Assembly: GCA_963732655.1 (NCBI GenBank)
Contig: CAVTAI010000003.1
Span: 4,940 to 68,939 of the forward strand
Direction of reading: 5' to 3'
Length of the DNA: 64,000 nucleotides
Origin: an uncultured Acidobacteriota bacterium
GTDB lineage: Bacteria; Actinomycetota; Acidimicrobiia; Acidimicrobiales; SHLQ01
A model generated the notes under the pieces. That model was not told the DNA's origin. It searched no databases and saw nothing but the letters and a program-made list of their open reading frames with translations. A program made the translations under genes and the position numbers. Each line of letters opens with the position of its first letter. The stretch's first letter is position 1. This document shows positions 9,391 through 64,000 of this stretch, in pieces.

Positions 9391-10122
9391 TCAGGGGGTG
9401 AGGGAGACCCAGGCGGCGGCGGTTGCCGCGTCGCCCAGGATCTCGACGGGGGCGGCGGTCGGGCGCCTCCACAGGTAGAGGAACAGATCGCTCGCCGAGC
9501 CTCGTACGGCGGCATCGCCCTTGGCGTGTTCGTGGGTCACGACGATGTCACCACCTGCCGAACGGATCAACCATTCGCCGTGGCCGTCCGTGCAGTGGAG
9601 ATGCAGCGAGGTCGACGGGGGCGGGGTGGTCGGTTCGCCGTGCTGGTGACGCCAGCCGATTTCGATGACTTCGTCGATCCCGTCCACGGCGAGCTCCCGT
9701 GCGACCGCGGTCGCGTCGCCCCGGGCGGCGAGTTGAGCGTCGACCAGATGTACCGCGGTTTCCATGGCCATGCGTCGATGGAAGAAGCCGGAATGTTGAG
9801 GCTCACCCCAGGTCCACATCGGCGTGGCGGTGCCCGCGACGGCCAGCGAGGCGATGAGTCGGGTGAAGCGCTCGTTGAGCCAGGCGACGACGGCGGCCGT
9901 GTCGCCGTCGGGGATCGTCGCTTCCGGGGGCATCTCGAAGCCGGTCGGTCGTGTGTCGACGGTGTGGGTGACCAAGGCCCACACCATCCCGACATGGCCG
10001 GCGAGCGCCGTGAGGTCCCAGCCCGGGCACGACGGGACCGCGGCGGCCGGCGATGCGGCGACGGCCGCGATCAGCGCCTCACCGTCGGTGCGGAGGTGGT
10101 CGAGGTAGACGATCTCGCTCAC
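9391..10122 (-). CDS. Maleylpyruvate-isomerase-family mycothiol-dependent enzyme (DinB/MDMPI fold)
   Basis: Start re-set to GTG 10122..10120, a GTGA overlap with the upstream stop at 10119..10121. VSEIVYLDHLRTDGEALIAAV...CPGWDLTALAGHVG is typical of the MDMPI N-terminal domain. The track's longer N-terminus would overlap the upstream gene. Confidence 0.8.
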   Translation of the reverse strand: MSEIVYLDHLRTDGEALIAAVAASPAAAVPSCPGWDLTALAGHVGMVWALVTHTVDTRPTGFEMPPEATIPDGDTAAVVAWLNERFTRLIASLAVAGTATPMWTWGEPQHSGFFHRRMAMETAVHLVDAQLAARGDATAVARELAVDGIDEVIEIGWRHQHGEPTTPPPSTSLHLHCTDGHGEWLIRSAGGDIVVTHEHAKGDAAVRGSASDLFLYLWRRPTAAPVEILGDAATAAAWVSLTP

Positions 10123-18226: not shown

Positions 18227-18280
18227 TCGTTCTGGCAGGGAGATTGCCCGCTCTGCGGTGCAATCTCCCTGCCAGAACGA
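18227..18280. repeat. Palindromic intergenic element, copy 1 (21-bp perfect arms, 12-nt centre)
   Basis: TCGTTCTGGCAGGGAGATTGC (18227..18247) pairs with GCAATCTCCCTGCCAGAACGA (18260..18280). The outer 17 nt, CGTTCTGGCAGGGAGAT, are identical to the element at 51495..51546. Lies between convergent gene ends. Confidence 0.8.
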
Positions 18281-33369: not shown

Positions 33370-35310
33370 GTGAGTGAGATCGCGTTCGCGGACAGCGAAA
33401 GACGGCCTCCTTTCGCTCGCGCCGTGGCCGCGCTGTACCTCGTCGGCGCATCGGGATGGATCGTGTGGCGACTCGCCGCGACCTCCGCCGGCGCCGAGCC
33501 GATCCTTTTCGTGATCCTGGCCGTGGTCGAGGTGTGGGCGATCGGGCGACTCGCCGCGGTCGCCGTCCCATGGGCGCTCGACCGACGCTCGACGGTGCGC
33601 GGCGATGGTGCTGCCGGCTCGCCGGTGCGCGGCGATGGTGCTGCCGGCTCGTCGGCGCGTGGCGATGGTGCTGCCGGCTCGTCGGCGCGCGGCGATGGTG
33701 CTGCCGGCTCGCCGGTGCGCGGCGATGTTGTGATCGTCGTCGGATCGGAGCCGGTGGCGCAGTTGCGCATCGCGGCGTGGAGCTGCCGGTTCGTGACCGG
33801 GTCGGACCGGGTGATCGTGATCGATGCCGTCGGACGACCGGCCGTCCAGGAGGAATGCCGGCGGCTCGGGCTGCCCGTCGTCGTCGGCGAAGGATGGGAC
33901 GGGGTGGGCGCAGCGCTCGACGCGGTCGCCCAGTCAACGGCGGCGCCCTCCCTGGTGATCGTGCCCGTGCGGTGCGCAGTCCTGCCGGATCTGCTCGTCG
34001 CGACGACGCCGCTTCTCGGGGGAGCCGTGAACGCGGTCTCCGTGCCGACCACCATCGTGGCCGACCCCGGTCTCTTCGGCGGTGCGGGGTACGACCTCGG
34101 GCTCGACGAGGACGCGGGCACGAGCGCCCGGAGCCCGTCCTATGGGCGGCTGCTCGATGGTCCGCTCGTGGTGCGCACCCTGGCTCTACGGCACGTGGGC
34201 TCGGGCTCCGGGCGCCGGCCCTGGCTCGCCACCGGTCGGCGGGTCGTCGCGGCGGGAGGACTCATCGCAGTCGCGCCCTCGGTGCTGGCCATGGAACGAG
34301 CTCCGGCGTCGGAGAGCGAAGCGTTGCGACGCCGCTGGCGGGCCGTGCGAGCCGACCGATCTGAACCCCGGTCGAGAGTGCCCGCAGCCAACCGGTTCGA
34401 TCGGTGGGCGTTCGCCGCCCGCAGCGCCACGTTCCTGTTGGTTCCCGTGTCGGTCTGGACGGGTCGGGTCCCGTTGACGATGGCTCCGTCGGACCTGGCC
34501 TTCATACTCGTGCCGTGGTGGTGCCTGACCGCGGTGGCGCGCCGCACGCTCGTGCCGCGCCGGTGGGGGGTGCTCGGCCAGCTCCGGCGTGATGTCCGCA
34601 CTCTCGGCGCCGACCTTCACGCCGGCCTTCGCCGTGGCGGTGAACCGGCGGTGTCGGCGTTCGTCCGGTATCAGCGCACGACCGCGCTGGCTCTGGTCGT
34701 CCTCGCCCTGATCACGTCGGCGCCCCTCTTCGGGGTGGGCCCAGGCGTGGGACCGCCCGATCTGGCGAGCGCCCTGTCGGGGGTTGCCGCGCTGGTGATG
34801 CTGGGCGTGGCTCGCGACACGTTGTGGGCCTCGACCGAGCGTCAGCGTCGCGGCTTGCCCCGGGAGGCGTGGGCACATGTTCAGCCGGCCGGGCCGTTCC
34901 GGATCAAGGACGTGTCACCCCTGGGCATCCTCGTCGACGGTCCGCCTACGGTGCAGGTGTCCGACGTGGTCGATGTCGACCTTGCCCTGCCGCTACCGGG
35001 GCGCCCGGCGACGACGGTCCGCCACCGGGCCGTCGTGCAGCGGGTCAAACCCGGCGAGGGGATCTTCCTGCAGTTCGACCTCGATGACGACCTCTTCGAC
35101 GAGCTGCTCTACTTCACGGCCGTCACCCTTCCGATGATGCGCCGTCTCGACGTGCGAGCCCGCCCGGTTGTCAGCATCCGCGAGCGGGGACGGCAGGCCC
35201 CCGTCCCCGATCTGGCTCCGTGGATGGCCAGCGTGCTCCGTGGGGCGACCGAGGCTCGAACCCCTGGCGATGTTCTCACCGGGAGCCTGGCGGACAGCCC
35301 GGTAGCCTGA
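33370..35310 (+). CDS. Membrane protein with a cellulose-synthase-like GT2 architecture plus a C-terminal PilZ domain; the GT2 catalytic motifs appear degenerate
   Basis: TM segments flank a GT2-like core whose expected D / DxD / TED / QxxRW positions read GSE / IDAV / VPVRC / RRRW. PilZ motifs are RQRRGLPR and DVSPLG. Family call is by reading only. Confidence 0.65.
   Translation: MSEIAFADSERRPPFARAVAALYLVGASGWIVWRLAATSAGAEPILFVILAVVEVWAIGRLAAVAVPWALDRRSTVRGDGAAGSPVRGDGAAGSSARGDGAAGSSARGDGAAGSPVRGDVVIVVGSEPVAQLRIAAWSCRFVTGSDRVIVIDAVGRPAVQEECRRLGLPVVVGEGWDGVGAALDAVAQSTAAPSLVIVPVRCAVLPDLLVATTPLLGGAVNAVSVPTTIVADPGLFGGAGYDLGLDEDAGTSARSPSYGRLLDGPLVVRTLALRHVGSGSGRRPWLATGRRVVAAGGLIAVAPSVLAMERAPASESEALRRRWRAVRADRSEPRSRVPAANRFDRWAFAARSATFLLVPVSVWTGRVPLTMAPSDLAFILVPWWCLTAVARRTLVPRRWGVLGQLRRDVRTLGADLHAGLRRGGEPAVSAFVRYQRTTALALVVLALITSAPLFGVGPGVGPPDLASALSGVAALVMLGVARDTLWASTERQRRGLPREAWAHVQPAGPFRIKDVSPLGILVDGPPTVQVSDVVDVDLALPLPGRPATTVRHRAVVQRVKPGEGIFLQFDLDDDLFDELLYFTAVTLPMMRRLDVRARPVVSIRERGRQAPVPDLAPWMASVLRGATEARTPGDVLTGSLADSPVA
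33595..33727 (+). repeat. 30-bp in-frame tandem repeat, about 4.4 copies, encoding (V/A)RGDGAAGS(P/S)
   Basis: Units at 33595, 33625, 33655 and 33685, plus a partial unit at 33715. Units differ by 1-3 nt. Confidence 0.9.
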
Positions 35311-41725: not shown

Positions 41726-41779
41726 TCGGGCGAGTTTGGGGGAGCGGCTTCGCCGCGCTCGTTGTAGCTGCGCCGGGAT

Positions 41780-41903
41780 GGCGGAGCCACACCGGCGCAG
41801 GGGGAGGGGCTCGCCGGTGCCGCTGGCGGAGCCACACCGGCGCAGGGGAGAGCTGTCGCTGTGCCGGCTGGGTGGGGCCACGTCGGCGCGGGGGGAGGCG
41901 TTG
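41780..41903 (+). repeat. 45-bp tandem repeat, two full units plus a diverged third, directly upstream of the 41904 start codon
   Basis: Units at 41780..41824 and 41825..41869 share GGCGGAGCCACACCGGCGCAGGGG(G)AG. The third unit (41870..41903) reads GGTGGGGCCACGTCGGCGCGGGGGGAGG and supplies the Shine-Dalgarno sequence. Confidence 0.75.
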
Positions 41904-51422: not shown

Positions 51423-51494
51423 GCCGTGACCCTAGTTGCTCAACCGAACCCGCCGCCCCCTGCCCCTCCGCCCGGTCCTGGGTTCGTTCTGGTT

Positions 51495-51546
51495 CGTTCT
51501 GGCAGGGAGATCGCACGCTGGAGCGTGCGATCTCCCTGCCAGAACG
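51495..51546. repeat. Palindromic intergenic element, copy 2 (25-bp perfect arms, 2-nt centre)
   Basis: CGTTCTGGCAGGGAGATCGCACGCT (51495..51519) pairs with AGCGTGCGATCTCCCTGCCAGAACG (51522..51546). Preceded by a tandem GGTTCGTTCT x2 (51481..51500). Confidence 0.8.
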
Positions 51547-52409: not shown

Positions 52410-53153
52410 ATGACCGCTCGCACTGATGCCGCCCAGGGGTTGGCCGTCTACCCCGTCAACCTGCTTTTGACCGGCGCCCCGTGCCTCGTCGTCGGGGGTG
52501 GGCACGTCGCCGCTCGTAAGGTGTCGGGATTGCTCGATGCCGGGGCCGCCGTCACCGTCGTGGCGCCGGAGGCAGTCAGCGACATCCGTGACCATCCGCT
52601 CGTGCGCTGGCACCAGCGCGACTACCAACGCGGCGAGGTCGCCTCGTACCGGCTGGCCATCACCGCCACCGGCGACGACGAGGTCGATGCCCAGGTGCAC
52701 CGTGATGCTGCCGCCACCGGAGTCCCCGTCAACAGCGCCGATGATCCTGATCGCTGCACCTTCATCCTCCCGGCCGTGGTGAGCCGAGGCGACGTGCAGC
52801 TCACCGTTTCCACCGGTGGCCGCAGCCCGGCGTTCGCTTCATGGCTTCGGCGGGAGGTCGAGCAGTGGCTCGACGATGGCCCGCTCCCCACGTTCGATCT
52901 GCTGTCGGAGGTTCGAGCCCAGATGAAAGCCGCCGGGCTGGCGACGGAACGCCCCGGTTGGCACGAAGCGCTCGATGATGGCCTCCCGGTGCTCATGGCC
53001 CGCGGCAACGTCACGGCCGCCCGTGCCCTGCTCCTCCGTCACCTCGGGTTGGCCGAGGCCGACCTCGTGTCGGCCGACCCGGCTGGTACCGAGGCCGACC
53101 TCGTGTCGGCCGACCCGGTGGGTACCGAGGCCGACCTCGGGGTGGCGCCGTGA
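52410..53153 (+). CDS. Precorrin-2 dehydrogenase / sirohydrochlorin ferrochelatase (siroheme synthase N-terminal-domain type, SirC/Met8-like)
   Basis: Start at ATG 52410. NAD-binding motif VVGGGHVAARK and the family pattern ...NSADDPDRCTFILPAVV.... Repeat-containing C-terminal tail. Confidence 0.8.
   Translation: MTARTDAAQGLAVYPVNLLLTGAPCLVVGGGHVAARKVSGLLDAGAAVTVVAPEAVSDIRDHPLVRWHQRDYQRGEVASYRLAITATGDDEVDAQVHRDAAATGVPVNSADDPDRCTFILPAVVSRGDVQLTVSTGGRSPAFASWLRREVEQWLDDGPLPTFDLLSEVRAQMKAAGLATERPGWHEALDDGLPVLMARGNVTAARALLLRHLGLAEADLVSADPAGTEADLVSADPVGTEADLGVAP
53055..53140 (+). repeat. 36-bp in-frame tandem repeat, about 2.4 copies, encoding EADLVSADP(A/V)GT
   Basis: Units at 53055..53090 and 53091..53126 differ at 2 positions. 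A partial third unit lies at 53127..53140. Confidence 0.85.
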
Positions 53154-56898: not shown

Positions 56899-57966
56899 AT
56901 GACCAGCACGGATGGCGCACGCTCGACCGGGATGGGGATCCACGTCAGCTTCGCCGCGGTCCTGGGCCTGGTGGCCACGGTGCTGGCCGCCTTGCTCGCC
57001 GGAAACGTGTTCATGGCCGCTCATCGCACGGTCGGCTGGGTGGTGGCCTGTGCCGTGGTGGCGGTGCTGGTGGCGCCGATCATCGCCGTGCTCGATCGGT
57101 TCATGCCCCGCGCGCTGGCCGTGGTGCTGACCTTCCTGGGTGGGTTCGCGCTGGTCGCCTCGTTGTGGGCGGGGGTGTTCGCCGACGTTCGTGGGGAGGT
57201 CGACGACCTCAAGCGTGACGCGCCCCGGGCCGCCGAGTCGATCGAACGTCGTTCCGAGCTCGCCCGCGAGTTCGAGCTGGCCGACCGGGTGCGGGGCGTC
57301 GTCGACGCGCTCGACGAACGGGTGGGCGGCACGGAGGAGGTCTTGGTCGAGACGGCCGGGACGGTGCCGACCTACGCCGTGACGGGGATCCTCACCCTCT
57401 TCCTCCTGATCTACGGGCGCCGGTACGTCGACGGGGGATTCGCCCGCATCTCGGATCCCGCCCGTCAGGAGCAGTGGCGGGGAATCCTGACTCGATCGCT
57501 GCGCCGGGCCCGGCGGTACGTGTTGTTCGCCCTCGCCGAGGCCGTCGTGGTCGGAGCCATCGCGTACGGGGTGGCTCGCCTGCTCGAGCTCGACGGGGCT
57601 CTGGTGCTGGCGGCCATCGTCGGCGGATTGAGCACGATCCCGATCATCGGCATCGTGGTCGGGTCGGTGCCCCTGCTGCTCGTGACGGCGGGATTCGAGC
57701 CGGCCTCGACCGCCGTGCTCGTCGGCTCGGGATTCCTCCTGCTCCAGGTCCTCGACGCCGTCGTGGTGTGGCGCCGGGTGGATCGTCACACGGTCGAGGT
57801 GGGACCGGCGATCTTCGTGATCGTCTGGCTGATCGGCTTCGACCTCTACGGCATCGGCGGTGCGGTGTACGGCGTCGTGCTGGCGGTGTTCGGCGTGGCG
57901 GTCACAGACACCCTGGCCGAGACTCGGACCGCCTCGCCTCCGGCACCGGTCAACGCCCTCACCTGA
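56899..57966 (+). CDS. AI-2E (PerM/YhhT) family transporter
   Basis: Start at ATG 56899. Multiple TM helices and the family-like IPIIGIVVGSVPLLLV segment. Divergent from its paralog. Confidence 0.8.
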   Translation: MTSTDGARSTGMGIHVSFAAVLGLVATVLAALLAGNVFMAAHRTVGWVVACAVVAVLVAPIIAVLDRFMPRALAVVLTFLGGFALVASLWAGVFADVRGEVDDLKRDAPRAAESIERRSELAREFELADRVRGVVDALDERVGGTEEVLVETAGTVPTYAVTGILTLFLLIYGRRYVDGGFARISDPARQEQWRGILTRSLRRARRYVLFALAEAVVVGAIAYGVARLLELDGALVLAAIVGGLSTIPIIGIVVGSVPLLLVTAGFEPASTAVLVGSGFLLLQVLDAVVVWRRVDRHTVEVGPAIFVIVWLIGFDLYGIGGAVYGVVLAVFGVAVTDTLAETRTASPPAPVNALT

Positions 57967-57985
57967 CCGGTGCTTCGGGCGGTCC

Positions 57986-59173
57986 TCAAGCGGGGACGAG
58001 CACGGCGGCGAGGTGCAGGGCGACGCCGGTCCGCAGGGCTGATTCGTCGATGCGCATGCGGTTGGAGTGACACGGCGCAGCGGTGCTCGGGTCGGCGATG
58101 TCGGTGGGACAGGCGCCGAGGAGGGCCATGCACCCGGGCACGCCCTGGAGGATGTAGCTGAAGTCTTCGGCCCCCATCACGGGGTGCGGGAGCTCGACGT
58201 ACCGGTCGGGGCCGAGCACCTTCCGAGCAGCTGTCGCCACTGCGGCGGCCTGGCCCGCATCGTTGACCGTGACCGGATACCCGGGTTCGATGCGGACCTC
58301 GGCTCGACAGTCGTGGGCGGCGGCGATGGCGTGGGCGGTTCGCTCGAGGCGTTCGTGGATGCGGGTCCGGGTGCCTTCGGCGACGGCGCGGATCGTGCCT
58401 TCGAACCAGGCGGTCTCGGGGATGACGTTGTGGGTCGTGCCGGCCTGGATGTGAGTGACCGACACCAGCCCGGGCGCGAAGGCGTCGATCTCGCGACCGA
58501 TCATCGTCTGGAACGCCCCGACCATGGCGCAGGCCGGCGGGATGGGATCGACACAGAAGTGGGGCGTGGACGCGTGACCACCGGATCCGATCACGGTGAC
58601 CTGGAACTCGTCCGCCGAGGCCATGATGGCGCCTGGTCTGGTGGCGGCCATGCCGGACGGCAGGTTGGGCGTGATGTGGAGAGCGAAGGCGCGATCGACG
58701 CCGGCCAGCACGCCCTGATCCACCATCAGCGCGGCGCCGCCGTGGCCCTCCTCACCCGGTTGGAACATGAACCGCACCCGGCCCCGAAACTCCGAACGCT
58801 GCTCCGAGAGCGCTCGGGCGGCACCGACGAGCATCGCCACGTGGGCGTCGTGCCCGCACGCATGGGCGGCCGACTCGACGGTGGACCGGAACGGTTCTTC
58901 GCTGTCCTCGGTCATGGGGAGGGCGTCGGTATCGGCCCGGAGGAGGACGGTGGGACCGGGGCGACCGGAGTCGAGGTCGGCGACGATCGACGTCAGATCG
59001 TCACCCGTGCTGATGTCGAGGCCGAGTCCGTCGAGCGCCGACAAGATGACCGACTGCGTGCGCGGATTGTGCAGGCCGATCTCGGGGTGCGCGTGGATGT
59101 CCCGGCGGATCGCCACCATGTCGGCGTGAAGTGGATCGGAGAGGGAGGCGAGGATCTCGGCGAGCGCGGGCAT
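57986..59173 (-). CDS. M20-family amidohydrolase (N-acyl-amino-acid / hippurate hydrolase type)
   Basis: IRRDIHAHPEIG, ADTDALPM, HACGHDAH, FQPGEEG motifs. Confidence 0.88.
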   Translation of the reverse strand: MPALAEILASLSDPLHADMVAIRRDIHAHPEIGLHNPRTQSVILSALDGLGLDISTGDDLTSIVADLDSGRPGPTVLLRADTDALPMTEDSEEPFRSTVESAAHACGHDAHVAMLVGAARALSEQRSEFRGRVRFMFQPGEEGHGGAALMVDQGVLAGVDRAFALHITPNLPSGMAATRPGAIMASADEFQVTVIGSGGHASTPHFCVDPIPPACAMVGAFQTMIGREIDAFAPGLVSVTHIQAGTTHNVIPETAWFEGTIRAVAEGTRTRIHERLERTAHAIAAAHDCRAEVRIEPGYPVTVNDAGQAAAVATAARKVLGPDRYVELPHPVMGAEDFSYILQGVPGCMALLGACPTDIADPSTAAPCHSNRMRIDESALRTGVALHLAAVLVPA

Positions 59174-59212
59174 CGCCGAACGTTAGCTCCGGACGCGAAG
59201 CGGCATCTCCTG
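59157..59212. repeat. 56-bp direct repeat, copy A (spans the M20 start codon and a relic tesB 3' end)
   Basis: 50 of 56 positions are identical to 59896..59951 by hand alignment. Confidence 0.85.
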
Positions 59213-59307
59213 AACGTGTACGCCGACAGGCGTCGCGTGTTTACAAGCGGGCCCACGGGTGTTAGAGGTTGAGGTGGATAGGCGCGCCATCAGCCCTGGG
59301 GGACCAC

Positions 59308-59886
59308 ATGCCGATCATCGAACCGATTCCGCTCGACCAACTGCCGCCACGATCTCGCGAGATCATCGAAGGCGGCGTGGCCGAGGGCCTCTACGCCACT
59401 CCCTTGCCGCTTCAGGTCTTCGCCTATCGGAGCGCCCTGCTCGAGTCGATGCACGCCAAGCGGATCGCTCGGAACGAGCCGAGCCTGCTCGGCGGTCGCA
59501 TCCACGAGCTCCTGCGCATACGCAGTGCCCAGCTCGGTGAGTGCCAGCCGTGCATGCAGTCGCGCAAGCACGATTCCATCACCGACGACGACATCGCCTG
59601 CCTGATCGGTGACGAACGGACGGACCTCGACCCGCAGGAACGCCTGGCCCTTCGATTCATCGATCTGCTGTCGGACGACCATCACGCCATCGACGCCAAC
59701 TTCTACGGCGAGCTGGCTGAGGTATTCTCCACCGCCCAGATCGTGGAACTCGGTATCGGGTGTGCCGAGATGATCGGGGTGCACCGGTTCATCCACACGC
59801 TTGACATCTTCGGTAGCGGTGAGCCGACCATTGCCTTCGACCCTGACCAGATCGACGCCCGCGCCGAGGCCGACGCCACGGTCTGA
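59308..59886 (+). CDS. Carboxymuconolactone-decarboxylase (AhpD-like) family protein
   Basis: Start at ATG 59308 with GGGGGA upstream. The CxxC motif GECQPC sits in an all-helical protein. Family-level call only. Confidence 0.8.
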   Translation: MPIIEPIPLDQLPPRSREIIEGGVAEGLYATPLPLQVFAYRSALLESMHAKRIARNEPSLLGGRIHELLRIRSAQLGECQPCMQSRKHDSITDDDIACLIGDERTDLDPQERLALRFIDLLSDDHHAIDANFYGELAEVFSTAQIVELGIGCAEMIGVHRFIHTLDIFGSGEPTIAFDPDQIDARAEADATV

Positions 59887-59895
59887 CCGTCCCGG

Positions 59896-59951
59896 TCGGC
59901 GAGAGCGGGCTTCGCCGAACGTCAGGTCCGGACGCGAAGCAGTATCTCCTG
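59896..59951. repeat. 56-bp direct repeat, copy B (spans the tesB stop codon and a relic M20 5' end)
   Basis: See 59157..59212. In this copy the M20 ATG position reads AAG, while the tesB stop (TGA, 59922..59924) is functional. Confidence 0.85.
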
Positions 59952-60725
59952 CGCCAGCGTGGCGGCATGGGTGCCATCAGCGGCATGGATGTGTCCGAGC
60001 GACAGGCCTCGCACGCTGACCAGGCCGTGGCCGGTCACGTCGTGGAGCTGCCACTCATCGGCTCGGATCGGCCGATGGAACCAGACGCTGTGGTCGATGC
60101 TGGCGTCGACGAAGAGCTCGTGATTGCCGGGCTCGGCCCGCGGGTGGAGCGACCGGCTGGCCTCCACCGGCGTCTCGTCGGACAGGAACGCGACGCCGCA
60201 CGCGTGCAGCACCGGGTCGTCGCCGAGGTCGCCCGTCAGGCGAAGCCACGTGGCGGCCCGGCCTCCGACGGGGCTCACCGCGTGCCGCCGTTCGAGCACA
60301 TCCGTCCATGTCTCCGAGCTCGGTTCGTCGTCGGGCAACGCCAAGGTGGGGTCGAGAACCGCAGCGGGAAGATCGGTGCCCACCTCGGGGCGTTGGAACG
60401 ACGCCGACATGGTGAAGATGGCGCCGCTCGACTGGCGGGCGGTGACCTGCCGAGTCGAGAACGATCGCCCGTCGCGGAGTCGATCGACCTCGTATCGGAT
60501 GGGTTCGCTCAGGTCGCCGCCCCGCATGAAGTAACCGTGGAGGGAGTGCACCGCGAGCGATGAGTCCGGTGCGGTCGGGGCCGGCAGGCAGGAGTAGGCG
60601 GCGCGCAGGGCTTGGGCGACCACCTGACCGCCGTAGACGCGTCCCCACGGCGTCGGTTCGTTGACCCCGAGGAACGTGTCCGGGCCGTGGGGTTCGAGGT
60701 CGAGCAATTCCCGGAATGCGACCAC
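59922..60725 (-). CDS. tesB: Acyl-CoA thioesterase II
   Basis: RVYGGQVVAQAL..., double hot-dog pattern, 267 aa, GTG start. Confidence 0.88.
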   Translation of the reverse strand: MVAFRELLDLEPHGPDTFLGVNEPTPWGRVYGGQVVAQALRAAYSCLPAPTAPDSSLAVHSLHGYFMRGGDLSEPIRYEVDRLRDGRSFSTRQVTARQSSGAIFTMSASFQRPEVGTDLPAAVLDPTLALPDDEPSSETWTDVLERRHAVSPVGGRAATWLRLTGDLGDDPVLHACGVAFLSDETPVEASRSLHPRAEPGNHELFVDASIDHSVWFHRPIRADEWQLHDVTGHGLVSVRGLSLGHIHAADGTHAATLAQEILLRVRT

Positions 60726-60733
60726 GCCGGGCC

Positions 60734-61774
60734 TCAGGCGGACCGGGGTCGGCGACGGCGGTTGGACGACAGTTGCGGCTCATCTCGCAGGGTGTCGGTG
60801 GGGTCGAGATCCGTCCCGGGGGAGACGAGCGCATCGAGACGATCGAGCAGGTCGGGGTCGAGTCGCACCTCGGCGGCCGCCAAGGCGTCCTCCAGCTGGT
60901 CGGGGGTGCGAGGGCCGATGATCACGGTGCTGACCGCCGGGTGCTCGGCGGCGAAGCCGTACGCCAGGTGGGTCAGCGGGAGCCCGGCCTCGTCGGCCAG
61001 GGCCCGGAGCTCGTCGAGCAGCTCGAACTTGTGTTGGGCGGCGCGACGTTCCGGATCGAACCGATCGCGAAAGACCCCGGGCCGGGTGGCGCGAGAGCCC
61101 TCGGGGGGCGGGGAGTCGAGCCGGTATTTACCCGTCAACCACCCACCGTTGAGCGGCCCATAGACCATCACGCCGATGCCGAATCGTTCGCACAGCGGGA
61201 AGATCTGACGCTCGGCGCTCCGGTTGAACACGTTGTACAGGCACTGCTCGGATCGGACCCGGGTCACGGCTCGGTGTTCGGCCACCCATTGGGCCTCCAC
61301 CATCTGGTCCGGCGTCGTGGCGGACATGCCGACCAGCCGCACCTTGCCGGACCGGACGAGGTCCGACATGGCCTCGAGCGACTCCTCGAGGTCGACCGAC
61401 GGATCCCGCCGGTGTAGTTGGTAGATGTCGATCCAGTCCGTGCCCAGCCGACGGAGGCTGTTCTCGACCTCACGGATGATCCAGCGCCGGGAGCCACCTC
61501 GGTGGTTCGGGTCCGAGCTCATCGGGAAGTAGACCTTGGTGGCCACGATGACGTCGTCGCGCCGGCCGGCCACGGCCTGGCCGACGATCTCCTCGGACGA
61601 ACCGCGGCTGTACACGTCGGACGTGTCGATCGTGTTGATGCCCGCGTCGAGCGAGCGGTGGATCATGCCCACGCACTCGTCCACATCGGTGTTGGCGGTG
61701 GGGCCGAACATCATGGCGCCGAGGCTGAGCGAGCTCACGCTCACGCCCGTCCGACCGAACGCTTGCATCTCCAT
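60734..61774 (-). CDS. Aldo/keto reductase
   Basis: Start at ATG 61774 (MEMQAFGRTG...). GINTIDTSDVYSRGSSEEIVG and DIYQLHRRD motifs. Confidence 0.9.
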   Translation of the reverse strand: MEMQAFGRTGVSVSSLSLGAMMFGPTANTDVDECVGMIHRSLDAGINTIDTSDVYSRGSSEEIVGQAVAGRRDDVIVATKVYFPMSSDPNHRGGSRRWIIREVENSLRRLGTDWIDIYQLHRRDPSVDLEESLEAMSDLVRSGKVRLVGMSATTPDQMVEAQWVAEHRAVTRVRSEQCLYNVFNRSAERQIFPLCERFGIGVMVYGPLNGGWLTGKYRLDSPPPEGSRATRPGVFRDRFDPERRAAQHKFELLDELRALADEAGLPLTHLAYGFAAEHPAVSTVIIGPRTPDQLEDALAAAEVRLDPDLLDRLDALVSPGTDLDPTDTLRDEPQLSSNRRRRPRSA

Positions 61775-61921
61775 CGGTGTACCCCTCTGTGCGTGGACCG
61801 TTTCGACCCGGTGAGCATTCTGACAGCTCGCACCCGAGCACGGGCACGGGCCATGCCGATGTGGAAGCATGTCGCCCACCTGGACGGCCAGTGGGGGTCC
61901 GCCAGGTGAACAGGAGGCACC

Positions 61922-63508
61922 ATGTCGGTGAAGACAAGCGCCGAGCCGAGCGCGGGCAACAAGGGCCTCAAGGCCGGCGCGCTGGGTTTGGTGGCGACCA
62001 CGGTGATCGCCGTGGCGTCGACCGCTCCCGGTTACAGCCTGGCCGCGTCCCTCGGCTTCATCACCGACGAGACGGGGGTGAAAGCGGCGTCGATCATCTG
62101 GCTCGCCTTCGTGCCCATGGCCTGCATCGCGGCCGCGTTCTACTACCTGAACAAGGCCGACGCCGATTGCGGCACGACCTTCGCCTGGGGCACGCGAGCG
62201 TTCGGTCCCCGCACCGGCTGGATCGGCAGCTGGGGCCTGATCATGGCCGACCTGGTGATCATGCCCAACCTGGCCGGGATCTCCGGGTCGTACCTGTTGC
62301 TGCTGTTCGGTCTCGAAGATCAGGCGTCGAATTTTGTGTGGGTCACCGCCCTCGGGTGCCTCTTCATCATCGCCATGACGTGGATCTGCTGGAAAGGCAT
62401 CGAGCTCTCGGCCCGCACCCAGGTGGCGCTGCTCGGCACCGAGCTGGCCGTGCTGGGGGTGTTCGCGGTCATCACGATCGCCAAGTCGTTCGGTGATGGC
62501 GCAACCCTCACCCAGGCGGTCGACCAGGGCGACGGCACCACCCTCGATACGACGTATCAGAGCGTGTCGCCGAGCCTCGACTGGCTGTGGCCCTCGGGCC
62601 TGTCGGCGAGCGCGCTCACCGCCGGGTTGGTGCTGGCCGTGTTCATCTACTGGGGTTGGGACACTGCCGTGTCCGTCAACGAGGAGTGCGAGGACTCCAA
62701 CCGCACCCCCGGGGTTGCCGCGGTGATCTCCACGTTCATCCTCCTGGCGATCTACCTGCTCGTCACGTTCGGCGCCGTGGCCTATCTGGGCCCACAGTTC
62801 CTGTCCGACAACGCGGATGATGCCCTGTACGCCGTCGGCCAGGAAAGCGTGGGCGGGTTCTTCAACAAGCTGGTGATCATCTCGATCCTCACGTCGGCGG
62901 CCGCGTCATGTCAGACCACCATCCTGCCCGCCACCCGCAGCATGCTCTCGATGGGCTCGCATGGCGCCGCCCCGCGCCGGCTGGCGTCGATCGACCGCCG
63001 TACCCTCACCCCGGCGTTCAGCACCTGGTTCTTCGGCGTCCTGTCGTGCCTGTGGTTCGTGGTGCTGGTGGTCATCCAGGAGAACACCGACACGTTGGCT
63101 TACGACGCCGCCATCGCGGGTGTCGGCATCATGATCGCCTTCTACTACGGCCTGTCCGGGTTGGCGTGCATCTGGTACTACCGGCGCTGGCTGCTCTCGA
63201 GCACCAAGTCGTTCTTCATGGTCGGCGTGCTGCCCGCCATCGGCTCGTCGATCCTCGGGTACATCATGGTCAAGACCTTGATCGACTCGTCGAAGGAGGA
63301 CTACGAGTACGGCCTCCTGTTCGGTATGGGCACCGTGTTCGTCATCGGCGTCGGGCTCATGTTGCTCGGGGTGCCCCTGATGGAATGGAACCGCGCCAAG
63401 AACCCGGCGTTCTTCACGTTCCGGCCTGATCCAGCGAGTTCGGCGCCGAACCCGATCGTCGACACGGAACCCGCCGAACCTCTCGGCACCTACCGGAAGG
63501 GGAACTGA
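61922..63508 (+). CDS. APC-superfamily amino acid permease
   Basis: 528 aa, about 12 TM helices, CAGGAGG upstream of the ATG. Confidence 0.9.
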   Translation: MSVKTSAEPSAGNKGLKAGALGLVATTVIAVASTAPGYSLAASLGFITDETGVKAASIIWLAFVPMACIAAAFYYLNKADADCGTTFAWGTRAFGPRTGWIGSWGLIMADLVIMPNLAGISGSYLLLLFGLEDQASNFVWVTALGCLFIIAMTWICWKGIELSARTQVALLGTELAVLGVFAVITIAKSFGDGATLTQAVDQGDGTTLDTTYQSVSPSLDWLWPSGLSASALTAGLVLAVFIYWGWDTAVSVNEECEDSNRTPGVAAVISTFILLAIYLLVTFGAVAYLGPQFLSDNADDALYAVGQESVGGFFNKLVIISILTSAAASCQTTILPATRSMLSMGSHGAAPRRLASIDRRTLTPAFSTWFFGVLSCLWFVVLVVIQENTDTLAYDAAIAGVGIMIAFYYGLSGLACIWYYRRWLLSSTKSFFMVGVLPAIGSSILGYIMVKTLIDSSKEDYEYGLLFGMGTVFVIGVGLMLLGVPLMEWNRAKNPAFFTFRPDPASSAPNPIVDTEPAEPLGTYRKGN

Positions 63509-63509
63509 C

Positions 63510-63947
63510 GTGGCCGACCAACTCTCCGGAACGGTGGTCGTCGGCGTCGGCGCCGACGGAACGGGCGACTACGCGGCGATGAGTGCCGCCCGTCTGGCCA
63601 ACCAACTCGGGTCGGCGCTCGTGATCGCGTGCGGGTACGAGCCGTCGGCCCTTGGCGGCGCCCGGGGTGTCCTACGCGACGAGATCGAGGCGGTCGCCAC
63701 CGAGGAGGTCGGCGCGGTGCGCGATGCCGTCGTGGCGTCGTTCCCGGGTCTCGACGTCTCGGTGGAGTATGTCGCGGATAGGGCGGTCGAGTGCCTGGTC
63801 CGGGTGGCGGACGAGCACGATGCGCTCGTCATCGTGGTGGGTCATGGTGGTCGTGGTCCGCTGTCGGGCGCCTTGCTCGGCTCCGTCACGTACGAGATCG
63901 TCCACCGGGCACCACGGCCCGTTCTGGTCGTGCCCGAGCCCGAGTAG
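63510..63947 (+). CDS. Universal stress protein (UspA family)
   Basis: C-terminal ATP-binding motif VVGHGGRGPLSGALLGSVTYEIVHRAPRPVLVV. Confidence 0.85.
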   Translation: MADQLSGTVVVGVGADGTGDYAAMSAARLANQLGSALVIACGYEPSALGGARGVLRDEIEAVATEEVGAVRDAVVASFPGLDVSVEYVADRAVECLVRVADEHDALVIVVGHGGRGPLSGALLGSVTYEIVHRAPRPVLVVPEPE

Positions 63948-64000
63948 AGTCACGGTTCCCTTCGGCGCCTGGCGCCGGTTCATCGATACGACGGAGACGA

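Follow-up and report, generated by a model that had tools for sequence, protein, structure and literature searches.

Within the 64,000-nt stretch of contig CAVTAI010000003.1 analysed here (assembly GCA_963732655.1, an uncultured bacterium placed in the Acidimicrobiales; the whole stretch is called the window in the following), a 683-bp unit with a single gene of the AhpD/CMD fold lies between the genes of a tesB-like acyl-CoA thioesterase and an M20 amidohydrolase. It is bounded on both sides by 56-bp direct repeats, each of which is a copy of the junction between these two genes. Our overall model is that the CMD unit was inserted into the tesB-M20 junction together with a duplication of 56 bp of that junction, and that the duplication was retained on account of an overlap between the promoter of one gene and the open reading frame (ORF) of the other; we hold this account to be probable, with good confidence. 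The case is a clean example of a rare, already described class of insertion scar, and no new kind of element.

The duplicated junction

The two repeats occupy positions 59157-59212 (copy A) and 59896-59951 (copy B), are identical at 50 of 56 positions (89%) and have a spacing of 739. A preliminary description of the locus had aligned them by hand, and the computed comparisons return exactly the same coordinates and the same identity. Self-BLAST of the 64-kb window gives the pair an E-value of 1.4e-12. Its ungapped local score is 38, whereas 30 shuffles of the region 57000-62000 reach 11-16, so that the similarity is significant by both measures. In a repeat search the pair is the longest direct repeat within 58000-61000, the runner-up having 24 nt at 83%, and an extended ungapped comparison reveals that both repeat ends are sharp, with identity dropping at once outside. 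Since the source is a metagenome-assembled genome (MAG) and short repeats often arise by chance in GC-rich DNA, one might suspect a fortuitous similarity or an artefact of the assembly. An E-value in the range of 1e-12, a score far above that of the shuffles and a gene order that was assembled independently in two related sequences, L001 and L170, leave this explanation with next to no probability.

On the minus strand, each copy consists of a tesB 3' end, 9 nt and an M20 5' end. This composite make-up, already noted in the preliminary description, can be read directly from the sequence. In copy B the tesB part is the functional one. The last 30 nt of the gene (59922-59951) read CAG GAG ATA CTG CTT CGC GTC CGG ACC TGA (...QEILLRVRT and stop, with TGA at 59922-59924), and they are followed by the 9-nt spacer CGTTCGGCG (59913-59921) and by AAGCCCGCTCTCGCCGA (59896-59912), which corresponds to the opening 17 nt of M20 but is dead, its ATG having become AAG (59910-59912). 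Copy A, also read on the minus strand, begins with CAGGAGATGCCGCTTCGCGTCCGGAGCTAA (59183-59212), a copy of the tesB 3' end with the stop TAA that is now the upstream region of M20. The same 9 nt CGTTCGGCG (59174-59182) and ATGCCCGCGCTCGCCGA (59157-59173) come next, the latter being the true and functional M20 start with its ATG at 59171-59173. The M20 start and the tesB stop fall at the same positions in the orthologues of four relatives (L001, L168, L169 and L171), and the tesB C-terminus ...LLRVRT aligns, up to the stop, with LLRVRS in L001 and with LLRLRR and LVRLRR in L168 and L169, respectively.

The partners of the old junction are identified by their domains. The upstream one is an acyl-CoA thioesterase II of 267 amino acids (59922..60725, minus strand), matched by Acyl_CoA_thio/4HBT_3 in Pfam and by tesB TIGR00189 in NCBIfam. 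The downstream one is an M20 amidohydrolase of 395 amino acids (57986..59173, minus strand), matched by Peptidase_M20 and M20_dimer in Pfam and by amidohydrolase TIGR01891 in NCBIfam. Further out, Pfam and NCBIfam identify an aldo/keto reductase (AKR) upstream and an AI-2E-family transporter downstream.

The duplication is the only one of its kind in the window: no second duplicated junction was found within the 64 kb, and self-BLAST detects no further copy of the 56-mer elsewhere in it. Another 55-nt repeat of similar spacing (16688/17466, 82%) was discarded, as it belongs to two paralogous ABC-ATPase genes and is no junction duplication. Both junction copies contain a 7-bp stem, TCGGCGA...TCGCCGA. 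Its reading as a terminator or an attC-like site finds no support in the folding energies, which are no better than those of shuffled sequence (z from +0.6 to -0.3), and was dropped.

Empty sites in related genomes

The preliminary description had proposed that tesB and M20 were once directly adjacent, and three relatives that have the two genes with no gene in between bear this out. Protein searches identified in L168 the order AKR (75% identity), tesB (75%), 25 nt and M20 (81%), and in L169 tesB (76%), 45 nt and M20. In L171, a contig of 158.8 kb, the order is AKR (72%), tesB (57%), M20 (71%) and, on the opposite strand, AI-2E (61%), so that the synteny of the window is kept on both sides of the junction; no CMD-like gene occurs within 10 kb either side of it. 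When the junction of L168 is compared with the window repeat, the tesB-end half is identical at 21 of 30 positions and the M20-start half at 14 of 17. We read these three junctions as empty sites, which supports a former direct adjacency of tesB and M20. The spacer between the genes measures 9 nt in the window repeats, as against 25 nt in L168, 45 nt in L169 and, before a local duplication, 13 nt in L171. Because these lengths differ from 9 nt, the empty sites are not products of precise excision or of recombination between the repeats.

The local duplication in L171 is informative in its own right. At 9968-10023 of that contig, the tesB-M20 junction forms a perfect (100% identical) tandem duplication of 26 bp in 2.2 copies and without any insert; the unit takes in the tesB stop and the 13-nt spacer together with 10 nt from the start of M20, with TGAC microhomology at its borders. 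This duplication is independent of the one in the window, at the same junction. It hints at replication slippage or template switching, and the junction can therefore duplicate by slippage unaided. This makes it conceivable that the window locus arose in two steps, namely a tandem duplication of 56 bp or more of the junction by slippage and a later, unrelated insertion of the CMD unit, perhaps with trimming deletions. Given the overlap of promoter and ORF, only a junction that was already duplicated would have been a neutral target, which speaks for this order of events. Yet the insert lies exactly at the joint of two full copies with no partial third copy, a coincidence of one in tens unless the site was trimmed, and no microhomology is visible at the ends of the unit. 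We consider such a two-step origin unlikely, although it deserves to be kept in mind.

More distant Acidimicrobiia (L011, L087, L088, L089, L091, L095) have the two genes adjacent in the reverse order, M20 followed by tesB, 35-55 nt apart. A metagenome scan with M20, which found no relative above 66% identity, served only to show this gene order and for the promoter statistics given below. Compared with the order AKR-tesB-M20 of L171, L168, L169, the window and L001, the reversed arrangement implies that the pair was reordered once, as a tandem duplication followed by loss would do. In line with this earlier rearrangement, one could imagine a large local tandem duplication of tesB-M20 and a nearby CMD gene, after which deletions left the CMD gene between two copies of the junction. 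This would take at least three events, including the loss of the second CMD copy, and no CMD gene lies within 10 kb of the empty site of L171 on either side. The genes that usually accompany CMD homologues, which could mark a donor site, are absent as well: a search of the window and L001 for TetR, SDR, NmrA-epimerase, DUF1214 and sulfotransferase genes returned only weak generic SDR matches at 32.5-33.2 kb and 50.7-51.4 kb. We regard this origin as improbable.

The inserted unit

The inserted segment (59213..59895, plus strand) is delimited by the two repeat copies and is absent from the junctions of L168, L169 and L171. Its 683 bp hold one gene with its promoter and no other real ORF. The gene (59308..59886, plus strand) codes for 192 amino acids and has a CxxC motif at C79-Q-P-C82. 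Its predicted promoter at 59240..59268 on the plus strand comprises TTTACA (59240-59245), a 17-nt spacer and TAGAGG (59263-59268), with TGT before the -10. In an alignment of seven CMD loci from differing genomic contexts, TTTACA and GTGTTA are the sole conserved upstream columns; homologues at other loci share with the insert the arrangement of TTTACA and, at a distance of 17 nt, (TG)T-TAnnnn. The insert, a gene with its native promoter, starts 22 nt before the -35 of the gene and ends 9 nt after its stop codon.

Hundreds of Acidimicrobiia proteins are 70-82% identical to the encoded protein and are named alkylhydroperoxidase or CMD family in their source annotations, and C79 and C82 are invariant in 20 homologues. 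The AlphaFold2 model is all-helical with a mean predicted local distance difference test score (pLDDT) of 78.5, and a Foldseek search of the PDB placed AhpD/CMD-like structures at all of the 33 best matches (6ohj, 2prr, 2oyo, 6e8l and others, including Bmp8, AhpD core proteins and SMU.961). The template modelling scores of these matches lie between 0.37 and 0.60, most of them at 0.55-0.6, with probabilities from 1.0 falling to about 0.6 and weak E-values of 0.1-3.6. At the level of sequence families the picture is different: no Pfam CMD domain, nor any other Pfam match, was found even at E<=10, NCBIfam yields only a weak YciW-related match (3e-4; 20 bits, where the cutoff is 310), and PDB sequences searched with a profile built from 20 homologues gave no match. 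The AhpD/CMD assignment of the preliminary description is therefore best kept as a fold-level label, for which it is acceptable: source annotations, the invariant CxxC and the moderate fold match speak for it, the missing Pfam match against it.

Across the Acidimicrobiia, the family has more than 75 invariant columns in 20 sequences and no matching Pfam model. Elsewhere its members stand beside a divergent SDR and TetR pair or a sulfotransferase gene, with a gene for an NmrA-type epimerase after them (L082, L083, L084, L085, L167 and the P0004 contig). Apart from L001, none of the other Acidimicrobiia loci examined has a CMD-like gene beside tesB or M20. These sequences (59308-59886 in the window; L081-L085, L167) make up a CxxC redox family that is uncharacterised and recurs in a TetR/SDR/NmrA-epimerase operon context. 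The inserted gene has a GC content of 64%, compared with 69-70% in its neighbours, and 82% GC at third codon positions compared with 85-92%; this slight difference is not convincing as a sign of foreign origin.

Nothing in or around the insert suggests machinery for its movement. The ORF list and domain searches contain no transposase, integrase or recombinase gene in the insert or beside it, the neighbours being AKR, tesB, M20 and AI-2E, and a repeat search detected no terminal inverted repeats with arms at 59213 and 59895. This bears directly on transposition, of which flanking direct repeats of the target are a hallmark. An insertion sequence (IS) or transposon could have been non-autonomous and mobilised in trans, leaving a target-site duplication. 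Bacterial IS families typically produce target-site duplications of 2-14 bp, so a repeat of 56 bp is not the short duplication of fixed length expected from them. Of the two ends of the insert, moreover, one precedes a normal promoter by 22 nt and the other follows a stop codon by 9 nt, and we judge transposition to be extremely improbable. Transposon target-site duplications are likewise described as a 'short duplication' (PMC11708052).

Site-specific or Campbell-type integration has to be weighed at the same point. A small circle carrying the CMD gene and an attP-like copy of the 56-bp junction would have left attL and attR on either side of it, which would make the present unit either an island in decay or a cassette of the integron kind. 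Direct repeats with one copy in empty sites do resemble att sites, integrative elements often restore the 3' end of their target gene, and the circle-reinsertion model for Arabidopsis offers a parallel (PMC2869330). Against this stand the lack of a recombinase in or beside the 683 bp, a cargo that is an ordinary chromosomal gene, conserved throughout the class and equipped with its native promoter, and the composition of both repeat halves, which are host coding sequence. The junction also has no significant secondary structure (z about 0), and the window holds no other copy of the 56-mer. Integration of this kind is in our view highly improbable.

A candidate leaderless promoter in copy A

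In the upstream region of M20, a candidate -10 box TAACGT, of the form TANNNT, lies at 59180..59185 on the minus strand; it ends 6 nt before the M20 ATG (-12..-7) and overlaps the relic tesB stop. Copy B has TGACGT at the same place, which is not TANNNT. The relatives offer comparable candidates: TAACGT at 6 nt from the ATG in L001, TACCGT at 7 nt in L168 and TACGGT at 6 nt in L169. In a set of 81 M20 orthologue loci (L087-L166 and others), TANNNT is found at spacing 6 in 18 loci and at spacings 5-8 in 30, whereas every other offset up to 49 has it in 0-2 loci. Upstream of M20 there is no conserved Shine-Dalgarno sequence. For Mycobacterium tuberculosis it has been reported that TANNNT centred 7-12 nt upstream of the transcription start site is the dominant promoter signal, that there is no -35 consensus and that leaderless mRNAs are abundant (PMC3898074). 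On the strength of the position of TANNNT, the published motif and the lack of a conserved Shine-Dalgarno sequence, we consider it probable that the M20 mRNA is leaderless and that it is made from a promoter whose putative -10 lies over the stop and last codons of tesB. From the sharp peak of TANNNT at 6 nt, leaderless expression appears to be common among the M20 orthologues.

The comparison with L001 delineates what resembles a footprint. An upstream block, CACGTTCAGGAGATGCCG (59201..59218, minus strand; -45..-28 of M20), spans the left edge of copy A and is identical at 17 of 18 positions; it may possibly be a -35 or upstream promoter region or an operator. The spacer between the block and the -10 agrees at only 4 of 13 positions, the -10 itself (GCTAACGT, -14..-7) at 8/8, the discriminator (-6..-1) at 2/6 and the start ATGCCCG (from +1) at 7/7.

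These observations modify an earlier view of the repeats. In the preliminary description, each copy had stayed intact only where it is still in use. The AAG in copy B agrees with this, but the tesB 'relic' in copy A is probably not idle, as it carries the likely M20 promoter.

Age and decay of the shared insertion

In a scan of species-representative genomes with tesB, L001, a 705-kb MAG contig, emerged as the sole close relative. Its identities to the window are 90% for tesB, 84% for AKR, 95% for M20 and 99% for the CMD protein, and its gene order tesB-CMD(opposite)-M20 is that of the window. The comparison with relatives that the preliminary description had called for supports its reading, as three relatives have tesB directly followed by M20. 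L001 has the three-gene order of the window, which makes the event an old one that is not confined to a single genome. The arrangement is no assembly artefact, because L170, an independent short-read assembly, reproduces the tesB/CMD junction of L001. As the alignment of the window with L001 continues across the entire insert, including a diverged promoter region, the two insertions are the same event. Moreover, copy A and its counterpart in L001 share TAA (where others have TGA) and CCG (where others have CTG, TTG or CTC), and in this they differ from every functional tesB end. From these relic-specific states it follows that the relic predates the split between the window and L001 lineages. 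Further changes set L001 apart: 9 nt of the dead M20 start after tesB are lost, and the relic upstream of M20 contains a scrambled patch of 13 nt, GGGCATGGGCAGG.

Divergence between the two genomes varies strongly along this region. The synonymous divergence (dS) is 0.75 for USP, 0.71 for AKR, 0.65 for tesB, 0.28 for M20, 0.27 for a permease and 0.05 for the CMD gene. In the interior of the CMD ORF (59356-59843) there are only 2 differences to L001, whereas the promoter and both junctions are 64-76% identical. This contrast points to a recent homologous exchange inside the conserved ORF. A recent transfer of the whole insertion between the two lineages was considered and rejected, since the promoter region and the junction copies are the most diverged parts (64-76%) and only the ORF interior is near-identical.

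Two further observations concern the wider alignment. The mosaic divergence between 57998-63959 of the window and 2768-8717 of L001 suggests frequent homologous exchange between the lineages. Synteny stops right after the M20 stop (about 57986-57998 in the window, about 8717 in L001), and because the window, like L171, keeps the ancestral AI-2E neighbour, L001 is the rearranged side at this 3' border of M20.

A model for the insertion

The following sequence of events would account for the locus. The common ancestor of the window organism and L001 would have had the order AKR, tesB, 9 nt and M20. A 683-bp unit, the CMD-fold gene with its own promoter, would then have been placed in the tesB-M20 junction in opposite orientation, while the 56 bp between -39 and +17, counted from the M20 start, came to stand as a duplication on both sides of it; with no transposase or integrase at hand, host break repair or replication would have done the work. 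The reason for keeping the duplication can be sought in the promoter. If the tesB 3' end and the M20 promoter occupy the same DNA, as the candidate -10 suggests, a plain insertion would disrupt one or the other, the tesB ORF or the M20 promoter, and duplicating -39..+17 would therefore spare both. The duplication would have made the insertion viable, with copy B serving tesB and copy A serving M20. We infer promoter retention as the functional reason for the duplication. The unused halves would since have decayed, as may be seen in the change from ATG to AAG in copy B and in its TGACGT where copy A has TAACGT; as the promoter-like features of copy B are dead, antisense transcription of the CMD gene from there may also be avoided.

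As a route we favour a single replication or repair event that would yield a duplication of the junction with foreign DNA at the joint, either by a template switch with a detour or by a staggered break that was filled in and joined to a fragment. Within the overall model, we rate this route as about equally likely to be right or wrong.

Several points weigh against the model or parts of it. The molecular route is a guess, and no microhomology is visible at the present boundaries of the insert. The empty sites come from rather distant relatives (tesB 57-76%) with longer spacers, and no genome with the exact 9-nt single junction was found among the relatives. Regarding the function of copy A, the evidence for its predicted promoter role is the position of one motif, and a canonical -35 for M20 is not present; an Escherichia coli-style promoter and terminator scan of 58900-60900 returned nothing, such a scan being uninformative for actinobacterial promoters. 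A last group of points concerns L001. A repeat search finds no junction repeat there, and with about 25 of 56 positions the similarity is barely recognisable. Also, copies A and B of the window differ by 11%, as compared with 32% between copy A and its orthologue in L001. For the two copies to be closer to one another than copy A is to L001, either the window lineage must have undergone a short gene conversion or L001 a local remodelling, consisting of the 13-nt patch and the 9-nt deletion.

Within the 13-nt patch, copy A equals copy B at 13/13, including the synonymous codons CTT and GTC that are derived in the tesB of the window relative to L001, L168 and L169, and this comparison of two genomes suggests that the two copies may have undergone a short gene conversion in the lineage of the window. 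Beyond the patch, copies A and B differ at 6 of 43 positions and copy A and its L001 counterpart at 9 of 43, for which gene conversion is not required.

Comparison with known systems

The closest parallel is insertion with long target duplication, described by Furuta, Abe and Kobayashi (2010, NAR 38:2428; PMC2853133) and by Nobusato et al. (2000, Gene 259:99). Members of the class show up as an indel when a related genome is compared, with an insert below 20 kb, a duplication of more than 30 bp and no other mobile element; cases have been reported from Helicobacter, Haemophilus, Neisseria, Burkholderia, Clavibacter and others, and their duplications span 46 to more than 400 bp (PMC2853133). 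The window locus resembles it in many respects: relatives with conserved flanks (L168, L169 and L171) lack the small gene unit at the orthologous site, the direct repeats exceed 30 bp with their 56 bp and are single-copy in the empty site, and the insert, with 683 bp far below 20 kb, has no transposase or integrase. The repeat may overlap the 3' end of a flanking gene in published cases too, as in Haemophilus influenzae, where a 46-bp duplication overlaps 15 bp of HI0105, and one of these cases, in Clavibacter, is actinobacterial (PMC2853133). With regard to the size of the repeat, the preliminary description had argued that 56 bp is far above the typical transposase duplication and points to a different mechanism. 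The lack of a transposase and of inverted repeats agrees with the first part of this, but a long duplication in the absence of a transposase has precedents, as this very class shows (PMC2853133).

The differences lie in cargo, age and retention. All published cargos are systems of restriction-modification (R-M) type; DNA breakage by those enzymes has been invoked as the driving force (PMC2853133). In contrast, the cargo here is an AhpD/CMD-fold redox gene without a nuclease, which a screen for R-M genes would not pick up. The event in the window is old, with copies 11% diverged and common to two species, and the reason proposed for its retention is the overlap of promoter and ORF.

Other systems share single features with the locus. 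Among the transposed non-transposon genes of Arabidopsis (Woodhouse et al. 2010, PMC2869330), single ordinary genes have likewise moved, and the flanking direct repeats derive from host genes and occur just once at the orthologous target. These cases, however, are eukaryotic, and the route proposed for them starts from tandem arrays, out of which a circle is released that is put back in by homology, whereas no tandem array or donor repeat is evident in the window. In target-site duplication by insertion sequences and in the duplication of repeats in CRISPR (clustered regularly interspaced short palindromic repeats) arrays when a spacer is integrated, staggered cuts in the two strands and fill-in also duplicate the sequence between the cuts. 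Both depend on a dedicated enzyme with a fixed stagger (2-14 bp for IS, one repeat length in the case of Cas1-Cas2), unlike the present locus with no enzyme, no element termini and a stagger of 56 bp. Template switching of the FoSTeS/MMBIR type (fork stalling and template switching/microhomology-mediated break-induced replication) and bacterial slippage duplications come close in another way, as they can duplicate a segment and leave DNA templated elsewhere precisely where the copies meet, and L171 provides a plain slippage duplication. Such events have been described mainly in eukaryotic genomes, and in the window neither a donor template nor joint microhomology is evident.

Other repeats in the window

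Besides the junction, the window contains two kinds of repetitive sequence. Two copies of a palindromic element of about 54 nt lie at 18227-18280 and 51494-51546. They share the arms TCGTTCTGGCAGGGAGATYGC, have stems of about 22 bp and are 89-96% self-complementary; the copy at 51.5 kb is preceded by a short direct repeat, GTTCGTTCTG. From their sequence, they may be a REP-like (repetitive extragenic palindromic) element, a terminator or a protein-binding site. In addition, there are three GC-rich tandem repeat arrays at 33587-33727, 41779-41897 and 53053-53139, with periods of about 30, 45 and 36 nt, respectively.

Conclusions

The empty sites document that a single ordinary gene was moved within a bacterial chromosome without mobile-element machinery, a route so far known almost only from restriction-modification genes. 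A cargo free of nucleases weakens the idea that DNA cutting by the cargo itself drives such insertions. A tentative joint reading, which we find rather doubtful, would go further: a long target duplication could be a general outcome of host repair or replication for any promoter-plus-gene unit, not a property of R-M systems, the tesB-M20 junction could be a recurrent hotspot (with an insert in the window and L001, without one in L171), and duplication could be the only way for compact actinobacterial junctions to accept genes. Genes flanked by repeats of at least 30 bp that are single-copy in relatives offer a search pattern for further cases, and the locus can serve studies of genome evolution as a worked example. 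For compact actinobacterial genomes, it suggests that if a gene's 3' end harbours the leaderless promoter of the next one, a new gene would fit in only if the junction is duplicated, with the apparent relic taking over the function of the promoter.

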